From assembly GCF_051105105.1 (NCBI RefSeq), contig NZ_CP185339.1: DNA of 64,000 bases; one strand, written 5' to 3'. The notes under the pieces are model-generated. The model was given only the letters and a program-made list of their open reading frames with translations. It made no database searches and was not told the DNA's origin. The stretch is from Nannocystis pusilla. GTDB taxonomy: Bacteria > Myxococcota_A > Polyangia > Nannocystales > Nannocystaceae. Position numbers and translations under genes: made by a program. Positions 29,321 through 32,298 of this stretch are shown in pieces (the stretch's first letter is position 1; every line of letters begins with the position of its first letter).

Positions 29321-30430
29321 CCTGGCACGTTCACGGCAGCTACCTCTACTACCTCACCCAGGCGCCGCACGAGTTCTACCTGCCCGTAAAGCCAGGTCGA
29401 CCCGAGGGCTACGGCGGGCGCAGCGGCAGCTTCGCCTGGGGCGCCAACGTCCACGAGGTCCCGGTGGAGGCCCTCGCGCAGCAGCAGTTCGACGTCGTCC
29501 TGTTCCAGTCGCGCCGCAACTACGAGTGCGACCAATTCGAGGTCCTCGGCGCCGCCCAGCGCCGGCTGCCGCGCGTCTACCTCGAGCACGATCCGCCGCG
29601 CGAGTCGCCGACCGACACCCGCCACCCGGTCGACGACCCCGACGTCTCTGCTCGTCCACGTCACCCCGTTCAACGCCCTGATGTGGGACGCCGGGCGCAC
29701 CCCCGTGCGGGTCGTCGAGCACGGCGTCGTCGTCCCCGACGACGCCGCCTACAGCGGCGAGCTCGCGCGCGGCATCGTCGTCGTCAACGACCTCGCGCGG
29801 CGCGGGCGTCGGCTCGGCCGCGACGTGTTCGACCGCGTGCGCGCCCACGTCCCGCTCGACCTCGCCGGCATGGACTCGGCCGCGCTCGGCGGCCTCGGCG
29901 ACCTGCCGCTGCGCGAGCTCCACGCCCGGCTCGGCCGCTACCGCTTCTTCTTCAACCCGATCCGCTACACCAGCCTCGGCCTGGCGGTGTGCGAGGCGAT
30001 GATGATCGGCCTGCCGATCCTCGGCCTCGCCACCACCGAGATGAGCACCGCCGTGCAGAGCGGCGTCAACGGCTACGTCGAGACCGACCTCGACCGCCTG
30101 CTCGCGCACATGCGGCGCCTGCTCGCCGACCCCGCCGAGGCCGCCGAGCTGGCCGCCGGCGCGCGCCGGATCGCCCGCCAGCGGTTCGGCATCGGCCGCT
30201 TCGCCGCCGATTGGTCGCGGGTCCTGGGCGAGGTCACCGGATGTCCCGAGGGACAGCTCGTCGCGCCGATACCGGGATGTCCCGAGGGACAGCTCGTCGC
30301 GCCCGCCGCCGGATGTCCCGAGGGACAGCTCGTCGCGCCCGCCACCGGATGCCCCGAGGACCAGCTCGTCCCGCCGATCACCACCTGTCCCGCGGGACAG
30401 GCCCCCGAGCCGGCCCGGAGGACCGCGTGA
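29299..30430 (+). CDS. glycosyltransferase family 4 with C-terminal GCPEGQLVAPxx 12-aa tandem repeats; +1 frameshift near 29655
   Basis: GTG start (VRRLRVLTWHVHGSYLYY). GT4 C-terminal domain FFNPIRYTSLGLAVCEAMMIGLPILGLATTEMSTAVQSGVNGYV in ORF 29681..30430. The two ORFs join at gacgtcTctg. Confidence 0.65.
30239..30410 (+). repeat. 36-bp in-frame tandem repeat (x4.5) encoding GCPEGQLVAPxx
   Basis: ggatgtcccgagggacagctcgtcgcgcc repeated with 36-bp period inside the 3' end of the GT4 gene. Confidence 0.8.
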
Positions 30431-32298
30431 AGCCGCTGCCGTTCGAGACCGGCGCGGGCGTCGGTCAGCCGCAGAGCCCGCTGCGGATCGCCATGATCAG
30501 CGAGCACGCCTCGCCGCTCGCCCCGCTCGGCGGGCGCGACAGCGGCGGCCAGAACGTCTACGTCGCCCAGGTCGCGCGCCACCTCGGCCGCCTCGGCCAC
30601 CGCGTCGACGTGTTCACCCGCCGCGACAGCCCGACCTTGCCGACGGTCGTCGAGCTGGCCGACGGCGTGCGCGTGATCCCGGTCGACGCCGGCCCGCCCG
30701 CGCCGCTGGCCAAGGAGTCGCTGCTGCCGCTCATGCCCGCGTTCACCCGCGAGGTCGCGGCCCACGCCCGGCGCGAGCGCTACGACCTGGCCCACGCCAA
30801 CTTCTTCATGAGCGGCCTCGTCGCCGCCGACCTCAAGCGCGAGCTCGGCGTCCCGTTCGCGGTCACCTTCCACGCGCTCGGCAAGGTCCGGCGCCAGCAC
30901 CAGGGCCAGGCCGACGGCTTCCCCGACGAGCGCTTCGCCATCGAGGAGCGGGTCGTCGGCGAGGCCGACGTGATCGTCGCCGAGTGTCCGCAGGACGAGG
31001 TCGACCTCATGACCCTCTACTCGGCCGACCCCGAGAAGCTCGTCATGGTCCCGTGCGGCTTCGACCCCGAGGAGTTCTGGCCGGGCGGACGCGCCGAGGC
31101 CCGCGCCGCGCTCGGCCTCGCCGACGGCGACCGCATCATCTTGCAGCTCGGGCGCATGGTCCCGCGCAAGGGCGTCGACAACGTCATCCGCGCGCTCGCG
31201 CGGCTGCCGGGCGAGCTGCGGGCGCGGCTCGTCGTCGTCGGCGGCGAGTCGCGCCGGCCCGACCCGGCGCTCACCCCCGAGATCGGCCGATTGATGGCAG
31301 TCGCCCGCGACGAGGGCGTCGCGGATCGCGTCACCTTCGTCGGCAGCCGCGGCCGCGGCGAGCTGCGCGACTACTACGTCGCCGCCGACGTGTTCGTCAG
31401 CACCCCCTGGTACGAGCCGTTCGGCATCACCCCGCTCGAGGCCATGGCCTGCGGCGTCCCCGTCATCGGCGCCAACGTCGGCGGCATCGCCCACACCGTC
31501 GCCCACGGCGAGACCGGCTACCTCGTCCCGCCGAGCGACCCCGACGCCCTGGCCGACAAGCTCGCGCTCGTGTTGTCGCAGCCGCGCCTGGCCCGGCGCC
31601 TGGCCCAGCTCGGCCTGCAGCGCGTCCACGCCCTCTTCACCTGGGAGAAGGTCGCCGCGCGCCTGGCCGACGCCTTCGCCGCGGCCGCCGGCCGGCGCCC
31701 CGCCCAGGCGCCCACCGCCGCCTTCGCCGCCGTCGACCGCGGCTTCGACGACCTGCTCGCGGTGCTCTCGCGCGCCAAGACCTGCCTGCGCGACGACATC
31801 GTCCGCGCCGCCGACCTCGTCAGCGGCGCCTTCGCCCGCGGCGGCAAGGTGCTCGTGTGCGGCAACGGCGGCAGCGCCACCGACGCCCAGCACTTCGCCG
31901 CCGAGCTCGTCGGCCGCTTCCTCGCCCCCGACCGCGCCGCCTTGCCGGTCATCGCCCTCAACGCCGACACCGCGGTGCTGACCGCCTGGGCCAACGACGT
32001 TGGCTACGCCGACGTGTTCGCCCGCCAGGTCCGCGCCTACGGCCGCCCCGGCGACGTGGTGTTCGGCATCTCGACCAGCGGTCGCTCGGCCAACGTCGTC
32101 GCCGCCCTCAAGACCGCGCGCGACTGCGGCCTGCGCACCTTCGCCTTGCTCGGCGGCACCGGCGGCGAGGCCGGCGACCTCGCCGACTGCGCCCTCATCG
32201 TCCCCTCGCCCGACACACAGCGCATTCAGGAGGTCCACACATTGGCCCTGCACCTGATCTGCGAGCTGGTCGAGGCGCGGGTCGCCCCGCTATCCTGA
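30421..32298 (+). CDS. fusion protein: GT4 glycosyltransferase (MshA-like) + SIS-domain sedoheptulose-7-phosphate isomerase (GmhA)
   Basis: N-terminal part [47 protein letters not shown] ... [18 protein letters not shown] (GT4 E-x7-E). C-terminal 190 aa [27 protein letters not shown]...[14 protein letters not shown]...[17 protein letters not shown] matches GmhA. One continuous frame, no stop between the two domains. Confidence 0.75.
   Translation, partial: [625 protein letters not shown]

Follow-up and report, generated by a model that had tools for sequence, protein, structure and literature searches.

What does it mean that, in a 64,000-nucleotide stretch of contig NZ_CP185339.1 of Nannocystis pusilla (NCBI RefSeq assembly GCF_051105105.1; the whole stretch is referred to below as the window), a single open reading frame (ORF) leads from a glycosyltransferase of family GT4 directly into GmhA, the sedoheptulose-7-phosphate isomerase of heptose synthesis? 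The first-pass annotation of this locus regarded the arrangement as an unusual fusion and connected it with a modified core oligosaccharide. We find that the GT4::GmhA fusion is a genuine gene, not an artefact of assembly, and that its architecture is common. On balance, at a probability of roughly 70%, we read its product as a truly bifunctional enzyme belonging to an old and widespread family; the GmhA half would feed the synthesis of ADP-heptose and the GT4 half would glycosylate a small acceptor, the two contributing to a heptose glycan other than the core of lipopolysaccharide (LPS).

Working outwards from the gene itself, its 3′ end lies where the first-pass annotation had placed it, at 32298; the start proposed there (30421) gives way to a GTG codon six bases further on, which on inspection shares the sequence GTGA with the TGA stop of the gene before it. 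As had been claimed, one stop-free frame carries the GT4 domain into the SIS domain. The window has a G+C content of 69–76%, so that stop-free frames are common, and the open frame containing the fusion extends from 28798 to 32298 (1166 codons), running through portions of two genes upstream; that no stop separates the domains is therefore weak evidence in its own right. Stronger evidence comes from the third-position GC phase and from homologues. A sliding analysis of third-position GC finds one coding phase from ~30350 to ~32300, and Pfam models matched to the translation of 30421–32298 locate Glyco_transf_4 at residues 42–217 (98.5 bits), Glycos_transf_1 at 225–396 (142 bits) and SIS_2 at 443–578 (94.8 bits, with a gathering score of 27), all above their gathering scores.

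The homologues agree. The top database match is a Nannocystis pusilla protein of 623 amino acids that is 100% identical, and the best 120 matches are all proteins of 619–715 residues with both GT4 and SIS_2 domains that, with a single exception, cover 95% or more of the query. With the N. exedens orthologue as query, tblastn covers 30427–32295 in one frame at 95% identity. Alignment across the whole gene reveals no uncompensated indel with respect to five other Nannocystis assemblies, the linker region between the domains included, and the same single ORF is present in N. exedens, two ILAH1-type assemblies, another N. pusilla, N. pusilla Na p29 and N. bainbridge. Two separate orthologous genes, joined here by a sequencing error, would have undone the first-pass interpretation; instead, the five Nannocystis assemblies and about 50 species of other phyla encode the two domains in a single ORF.

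How far the architecture extends can be judged from 87 loci with a GT4 orthologue: 80 from a scan of one genome per species, together with loci found among relatives. At 56 of these the SIS domain follows in the same ORF and frame; at the other 31 the ORF ends after ~435–460 codons, leaving the GT4 unfused. Together with the best 120 database matches, every one of them fused, this disposes of the description ‘unusual’. Fused forms are found in Myxococcota, Chloroflexota (Dehalococcoidia, Anaerolineae, Chloroflexia and Limnocylindrales), many filamentous cyanobacteria, Actinomycetota, Bacteroidota and Patescibacteria, as well as in Nitrospira, Nitrosospira, Acidobacteriota and Deinococcus (on a plasmid in D. 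metallilatus); unfused forms belong mainly to Betaproteobacteria, Planctomycetota, Gemmatimonadota and a few Chloroflexota. HldE, too, is missing from most of the unfused loci, which are chiefly betaproteobacterial; two of these betaproteobacterial loci have a separate gmhA close by.

The surroundings of the gene are shared as well. A recurrent order—GT9 (heptosyltransferase family), small glycosyltransferase (‘small GT’), GT4 with or without GmhA, short-chain dehydrogenase/reductase (SDR), GmhB-like phosphatase of the HAD family, HldE, GT9, in some cases GT2, and GT9 again—is seen in Nannocystis, on the Deinococcus plasmid, and in Anaerolineae, Dehalococcoidia, cyanobacteria, Bacteroidota, Patescibacteria and others; searched against all loci, the operon proteins of ILAH1 are 45–70% identical across phyla. 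The GT4 is accompanied most steadily by the small GT, by the HAD phosphatase and by GT9b; SDR, GT9a, HldE, GT2 and GT9c are also frequent.

For the C-terminal half of the protein, the leading PDB matches are the GmhAs of Campylobacter jejuni (1TK9; 1.5e-46) and Burkholderia pseudomallei (2XBL; 5.8e-45), and a search of 1.8 billion representative proteins finds it 50–60% identical both to ordinary GmhAs of 190–200 residues and to other fusion proteins. GmhA holds a zinc ion in its active site (PMC11056994). Here, the zinc ligands of 2XBL correspond in the alignment to His489, Glu493, Gln601 and His609, which are invariant in 70 of 70 family sequences; in these the GNGGS and STSG motifs are likewise conserved; the AlphaFold2 model has high per-residue confidence (pLDDT) over residues 430–622. 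We take the corresponding zinc-binding and catalytic residues of the E. coli enzyme to be His61, Glu65, Gln172 and His180, their identities being carried over through the B. pseudomallei structure. The GmhA half looks catalytically active; a non-catalytic, regulatory SIS domain is unlikely, all of the catalytic residues being invariant. No other SIS domain is encoded in the window and, unlike the free-standing homotetramer of ~190–200 residues, this one sits behind a GT4 of 420 residues.

Fusions of GmhA in general are not rare. GmhA-like domains occur in several further multi-domain proteins (P0125, P0132, P0147 and others), some of ~400–450 residues with two matched stretches and some of 376–601 residues that carry the SIS domain at either end.

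The N-terminal half lies closest to two enzymes of known structure: the sucrose-phosphate synthase (SPS) Tll1590 of Thermosynechococcus elongatus (TeSPS; 6KIH, 5.9e-80 in the PDB sequence search) and MshA of Corynebacterium glutamicum (CgMshA; 3C48, 6.5e-66), with the LPS-core enzyme WaaG at ~1e-16. Foldseek comparison of the AlphaFold model agrees, returning TM-scores (normalised to the target) of 0.92 to 6KIH and 0.90 to 3C4Q, with GlgM and BshA next; identity in the structural alignments with SPS and MshA is 33–36%. Every one of these closest structures is that of a soluble GT4 whose acceptor is small and anionic. In TeSPS, His158 and Glu331 are catalytic, Arg249, Arg253 and Glu339 bind the nucleotide (UDP), a Gln binds the fructose hydroxyls, and Arg105 and Arg178 hold the acceptor phosphate (PMC7264703). 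The equivalents of the first five are invariant in 87 orthologues, in which the fructose-contacting Gln is also conserved; the SPS-type GGQN motif is present, and the basic acceptor-phosphate residues held in common by TeSPS and MshA are kept too, as Lys96 (87 of 87 loci) and Arg169 (85 of 87). The GT4 half, like its partner, looks catalytically active, and the first-pass view of a fusion within a heptose-pathway cluster is supported. The acceptor pocket is identical in unfused orthologues across the 87 loci, indicating that the chemistry of the GT4 does not depend on a physical link to GmhA.

A match to the Pfam model ‘GT4-conflict’ had prompted a reading as part of a defence system; at 59 bits it is far weaker than those to the general GT4 models (98–142 bits), and we have rejected it.

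Between the two halves the linker varies in both length and sequence across the family, with an insertion of ~60 residues in one member. Whilst the AlphaFold model of the fusion protein as a whole has a mean pLDDT of 90.2, residues 425–429 fall below 50 and the predicted TM-score (pTM) is 0.68; given a linker that is short, variable and modelled at low confidence, a fixed interdomain geometry is not predicted.

The features of the operon are collected in Table 1. GmhA, HldE and the GmhB-like phosphatase are all encoded within it, the presence of gmhB (as a gmhB-like gene) and hldE in the cluster having been noted correctly in the first-pass annotation. The adenylyltransferase domain of HldE passes its NCBIfam model (rfaE_dom_II, 190.6 against a cut-off of 181.5), and the kinase domain scores below the equivalog cut-off and above that at domain level. 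The HAD protein reaches 115–121 bits with the NCBIfam GmhB models, below their cut-offs, and exceeds those of the HAD-IIIA and histidinol-phosphatase domain models; its translation contains a CxH...CxC motif. Several junctions between genes overlap by four bases, suggesting translational coupling.

Table 1. Positions of the fusion gene, its domains and the other features of the operon in the window
Feature	Position	Strand	Basis and remarks
GT9a, heptosyltransferase family, 361 aa	27720..28805	+	Pfam Glyco_transf_9; upstream of GT4 in most loci
173-aa paralogue, GT9 N-terminal domain only	28798..29320	+	tblastn; broken by +1 insertion at 29067
Small GT-B glycosyltransferase (Glyco_trans_1_4), 376 aa if repaired	29299..30430	+	broken by +1 insertion at 29647/29648
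36-bp (12-aa, GCPEGQLVAP-like) tandem repeat, C-terminal tail of small GT	30235..30400	+	Tandem Repeats Finder: 4.6 copies, 83% matches
GT4::GmhA fusion gene, 623 aa	30427..32298	+	GTG start, TGA stop; ORF, Pfam, database match
GT4 retaining glycosyltransferase domain, SPS/MshA clade, residues ~20–420	30484..31686	+	PDB sequence search, Foldseek, invariant residues
Interdomain linker, residues ~421–429	31687..31713	+	low pLDDT, family variation
GmhA, sedoheptulose-7-phosphate isomerase, SIS_2 domain, residues ~430–623	31714..32295	+	Pfam SIS_2, PDB matches, invariant residues
Classical SDR, 246 aa	32398..33139	+	broken by +1 insertion at 32600; after GT4 in most loci
GmhB-like HAD-IIIA phosphatase, 194 aa	33136..33721	+	NCBIfam; broken by +1 insertion at 33496
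HldE, heptose-7-phosphate kinase and heptose-1-phosphate adenylyltransferase, 487 aa	33862..35325	+	Pfam PfkB and CTP_transf_like; intact
GT9b, closest to heptosyltransferase II (WaaF)	35322..36425	+	tblastn, TIGR02195; intact
GT9c, third full-length GT9	36697..37885	+	broken by +1 insertion at 37004

From the architecture, the conserved residues, the synteny and the spread of the family we infer which two activities are present, what the GT4 uses as donor and acceptor, and what kind of product results, as follows. The GmhA domain, as the operon's only isomerase, would make heptose-7-phosphate for HldE and the GmhB-like phosphatase, which would then yield ADP-heptose; from this, the operon's GT9s, two or three in number, would transfer heptose. 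The GT4 half, a retaining enzyme, would move a hexose or N-acetylhexosamine from a nucleotide sugar onto a small, probably phosphorylated, acceptor belonging to the same pathway. The product would be an uncharacterised heptose-containing glycan or glycoside distinct from a classical LPS core. The fusion would couple the supply of precursor to assembly of the glycan through co-expression and fixed stoichiometry, possibly by way of a GmhA-style tetramer, and lineages with the heptose pathway encoded elsewhere would carry the same GT4 unfused.

Several observations weigh against this scheme. Both halves fall short of the equivalog models that would name them: the GmhA domain scores 190.4 against a cut-off of 209.45 for TIGR00441 and 194 against 276 for NF010546 (both NCBIfam gmhA models), and the GT4 scores 291.3 against 462.5 for MshA (TIGR03449) and 123.5 against 576 for SPS (TIGR02472). 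Since it lies below both of the latter cut-offs, we file the GT4 as neither MshA nor SPS; it forms a distinct subfamily of the SPS/MshA clade, and the name ‘D-inositol-3-phosphate glycosyltransferase’ given to such proteins in databases is unjustified. When the four ligands of the acceptor phosphate in MshA (Lys78, Tyr110, Thr134 and Arg154) are compared, two are seen to be replaced family-wide: Tyr110 by Phe and Thr134 by Ala in nearly all members, where TeSPS has Tyr and Ser; the acceptor may, as a consequence, not be a sugar phosphate. The association of the fusion with HldE is also imperfect, HldE being absent at some fused loci (Mucilaginibacter, Nitrospira and some Actinomycetota) and kept at some unfused ones (Tundrisphaera and Herpetosiphonaceae). 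A neighbour-joining tree of GT4 domains, rooted on TeSPS and MshA, has the fused forms basal and the unfused forms nested within them; the tree is a rough one and carries no support values, and its suggestion that the fusion is old and the SIS domain has been lost repeatedly should be read with that in mind. Finally, if the five frameshifts that break neighbouring operon genes in the window (see below) were real, the operon would be dead in this strain.

Of the other ways to account for the locus, the one that survives best has the two halves hand a substrate from one to the other, a specific form of the channelling suggested in the first-pass annotation. By analogy with SPS acting on fructose-6-phosphate, the GT4 might glycosylate heptose-7-phosphate or sedoheptulose-7-phosphate arising from its own GmhA half; the HAD protein might then dephosphorylate the product, as SPP does, and the resulting disaccharide prime heptosylation by the GT9s. 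We consider this possible, though not probable. The nearest characterised relatives of the GT4 take phosphorylated sugars or cyclitols as acceptors, and both of the basic phosphate-binding residues are conserved, as is the Gln that meets the fructose hydroxyls in TeSPS. The HAD gene stays beside the GT4 even where HldE is absent, as in the Betaproteobacteria without HldE in the operon. The operon shows no identifiable priming transferase, and all-against-all clustering of flanking ORFs found no universal exporter or flippase (the largest cluster consisted of sensor kinases, PAS, GGDEF and ABC proteins joined via promiscuous domains), which would fit a soluble cytoplasmic product. On the other side stand the two phosphate ligands lost family-wide; the unchanged pocket of the unfused orthologues, for which proximity is evidently not needed; and the short, low-confidence linker, with no fixed geometry predicted across it. 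Moreover, the HAD protein has a zinc motif of the GmhB type and may simply be GmhB, and its gene is missing at two loci (L017 and L023).

A fuller version would have the GT4 make a phosphorylated hexosyl-heptose from the C7 sugar phosphate of its own GmhA half, the HAD protein remove the phosphate, and the GT9s, with carbamoyltransferase, GT2 and SDR where these are present, build a soluble cytoplasmic heptose oligosaccharide; we think this somewhat less likely again. Were it true, over ten phyla would owe to one horizontally spread operon a class of bacterial metabolite not described before, and its GT9 enzymes would be the first shown to act on an acceptor that is neither lipid nor protein.

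A different doubt concerns the state of the operon in this strain. Compared with all five related Nannocystis assemblies, the window contains six isolated single-base insertions: one at 25619, in an amine oxidase gene, followed in order by those in the 173-aa gene, the small GT, the SDR, gmhB and GT9c (Table 1). The fusion gene is intact, even though its neighbours are frameshifted. It could be supposed that the insertions are real, that the operon consists of pseudogenes in this strain and that the intact fusion gene is a remnant; five of the nine operon genes are, after all, frameshifted in the window and intact in the five related assemblies. This is an improbable account. All six changes are +1 insertions, with no deletion, nonsense change or larger lesion among them, and that at 25619 lies outside the operon; for these reasons assembly error is likelier than decay. 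Insertions aside, the proteins of the broken genes match those of N. exedens at 91–96% identity for the greater part of their length. There are also two other probable frame breaks, well outside the operon: at ~10330, where two abutting ORFs (9699–10340 and 10327–11142) both contain thrombospondin type 3 repeats, and at ~15650, where an ORF from 15685 opens directly with a histidine-kinase ATPase domain, its expected upstream part being in another frame. Such a pattern fits systematic errors of insertion, and the six insertions are probably assembly errors; decay, if real, leaves the account of the family unchanged.

Less credible still is that the operon adds heptose and hexose to the inner core of the LPS of Nannocystis, with the fusion as an enzyme of core biosynthesis; this is close to the first-pass suggestion of a modified core oligosaccharide. 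Nannocystis is Gram-negative, and GT9, GT4, HldE, GmhA and GmhB together make up the classical inner-core toolkit. GT9b comes near the cut-off of the heptosyltransferase II (WaaF) model TIGR02195 (128.1 against 134.6), an MsbA-like ABC exporter is encoded a few kb downstream of the operon in Nannocystis, and the carbamoyltransferase, GT2 and epimerase of the betaproteobacterial loci resemble a core cluster of Pseudomonas (PMC8005017). Against this, WaaG is a far more distant match to the GT4 than SPS or MshA; the LPS equivalog cut-offs (WaaC, WaaF and WaaQ) are reached by none of the GT9s, GT9a and GT9c falling far below; and among the operon genes examined we identified neither a Kdo transferase nor a lipid A gene. 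The same operon, at 55–65% protein identity, is found in Chloroflexota, Actinomycetota, Patescibacteria and Deinococcus, which are not known to have a heptose-containing LPS core. A role in the LPS core is thus unlikely in general, and that part of the first-pass interpretation is not supported. MsbA-like exporters, for their part, lie near the operon in few lineages only.

The last alternative, that sequencing or assembly error merged two adjacent genes by removing a stop or shifting the frame, can draw on at least six gene-breaking single-base insertions in the window (five of them within this very operon) and is next to impossible in the face of five other Nannocystis assemblies that encode the same 623-residue protein, a SIS domain in frame with the GT4 at 56 loci of many phyla, and a coding phase unbroken across the junction.

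Some members of the operon deserve further comment. The four GT9 heptosyltransferases of the first-pass annotation come down to three full-length proteins (GT9a, GT9b and GT9c); the supposed fourth is the 173-aa paralogue, which has an N-terminal domain only. It is split by tblastn into pieces in frames 1 and 2, and over residues 2–138 it is 35% identical to the N-terminal half of GT9b; it has no Pfam or NCBIfam match. A protein of 150–173 residues resembling the GT9 N-terminal domain stands between GT9a and the small GT at 13 loci, in Nannocystis, Deinococcus and several cyanobacteria (e.g. L003, 8446–8967; L006, 8582–9034), and a part as an adaptor or acceptor-binding subunit is possible. 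The small GT lies directly 5′ of the GT4 at most loci and is 50–70% identical across phyla; neither it nor the 173-aa protein has an informative match in Pfam, NCBIfam or the PDB beyond weak similarity to a GT-B C-terminal domain.

In Nannocystis the small GT ends in the tandem repeat that had been picked out in the first-pass annotation and that proves to be real. Its unit is a set of 12 residues of the GCPEGQ(L/V) type, and the array stands directly upstream of the start codon of the fusion. Copies number one in N. exedens and N. bainbridge, three in ILAH1, five in the window and about 9–10, with irregular spacers, in another N. pusilla strain; the lengths of the small GT (328, 352 and 434 residues in related genomes, beside that of the repaired gene of the window) agree with copy number. 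This is a fast-evolving, variable-number repeat, and the tail that bears it is presumably disordered.

With regard to further modification of the heptose, no extended-SDR epimerase of the kind represented by HldD (the ADP-heptose 6-epimerase giving L-glycero-D-manno-heptose) is encoded in the Nannocystis operon, whose only SDR is the classical one; an Epimerase-family gene is present at some betaproteobacterial loci. At some cyanobacterial loci the HldE homologue is kinase-only (L008, 8381–9427, 348 residues; L020; L029), without the adenylyltransferase domain, implying that activation of heptose to its nucleotide form is encoded elsewhere or unused there. A carbamoyltransferase of the NodU/CmcH type follows GT9b at 22 or more loci in several phyla (for instance L011, 16562–18292, and L084, 13152–15071) and is absent from Nannocystis; its presence suggests that the product is carbamoylated in many lineages. 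In the Pseudomonas core, WapO carbamoylates heptose (PMC8005017).

Other genes occur in the vicinity. A PucR-type regulator emerged among the accessory genes from clustering of the flanking ORFs. A radical SAM/SPASM protein is encoded a few kb downstream of the operon at six loci of different phyla (L011, 19454–20461; L044; L055; L060; L069; L071), and a zinc alcohol dehydrogenase (ADH_N and ADH_zinc_N) within a few kb at eight loci of Myxococcota, Chloroflexota and Betaproteobacteria (L007, L001/L003/L005/L009, L060, L072 and L084), where it may be a further partner modifying sugars or polyols. Upstream of GT9a, all Nannocystis loci have genes for an endonuclease/exonuclease/phosphatase-family protein (26294–27067 in the window) and a hemerythrin (27192–27674); a protein of the same phosphatase family, 45% identical, is also encoded upstream of the Deinococcus operon (L006, 4574–5314) and may be part of the system. 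Downstream, an AraC regulator, a beta-lactamase-family protein and the ABC exporter are unrelated to the operon or loosely associated with it. Further away, and unrelated to it, a KGG stress-induced repeat protein (45885–46394, minus strand) lies beside a weakly GT-B-like glycosyltransferase (46370–47728, plus strand).

How does the system compare with those already described? With the GmhAs of E. coli, C. jejuni and B. pseudomallei, the C-terminal domain shares the SIS fold, ~50% identity over the whole domain, the four zinc-binding and catalytic residues, both phosphate-binding motifs (GNGGS and STSG) and a genomic association with hldE and gmhB; it differs in forming the end of a longer protein and in scoring just below the equivalog cut-offs. 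For the N-terminal 420 residues, SPS and MshA are the closest in both sequence and fold, and share with them the catalytic His and Glu, the two UDP-binding Arg residues and the basic pair for the acceptor phosphate; beyond the 33–36% identity, the scores below their equivalog cut-offs and the Phe and Ala described above, the difference is one of setting, heptose here taking the place of sucrose or mycothiol. A precedent for two heptose-pathway enzymes in one polypeptide, split or fused according to lineage, is HldE (RfaE) itself, although it joins two steps of precursor synthesis where GT4::GmhA joins precursor synthesis to glycosyl transfer. The two-domain SPSs of cyanobacteria and plants combine a glycosyltransferase domain with an SPP-like phosphohydrolase domain. 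They likewise attach to an SPS-type GT4 a C-terminal domain that handles a sugar phosphate of the same pathway, and a HAD phosphatase is a functional partner in both cases; the appended domain here, however, is a SIS isomerase and not HAD-like, the HAD phosphatase being a separate gene. The inner-core LPS cluster of Pseudomonas (GT9 enzymes WaaC and WaaF, the GT4 WaaG, and WapO) combines GT9s, a GT4 and a carbamoyltransferase, as do at least 22 of the related loci (PMC8005017 for the former); by contrast, the present operon has a GT4 unlike WaaG, encodes GmhA, HldE and GmhB itself, extends to phyla without LPS, and shows no identifiable gene for lipid A or Kdo.

What emerges is a variant of the ADP-heptose pathway coupled to an SPS/MshA-like transferase, both domains being from well-known families. 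The architecture is abundant in databases under the names ‘glycosyltransferase’, ‘phosphoheptose isomerase’ or, wrongly, the inositol-phosphate name discussed above. In the open-access literature that we searched, we found no description of GT4::GmhA or of its operon, and one may exist elsewhere.

Heptose metabolism has been studied almost only in connection with the LPS core of Gram-negative bacteria and with ADP-heptose as an innate-immune signal. For this window alone the result is a modest one, adding one more member to a numerous family; taken more widely, the fusion is a ‘Rosetta stone’, linking an SPS/MshA-like glycosyltransferase to heptose synthesis, and marks a self-contained operon, at ~60% protein identity, in bacteria with very different envelopes, many of them without LPS. 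Common, and probably not an enzyme of the LPS core, it serves as a marker of an uncharacterised heptose-glycan operon that crosses phyla; knowing what is made would establish a new role for heptose and give a function to a large family at present annotated only in generic terms.

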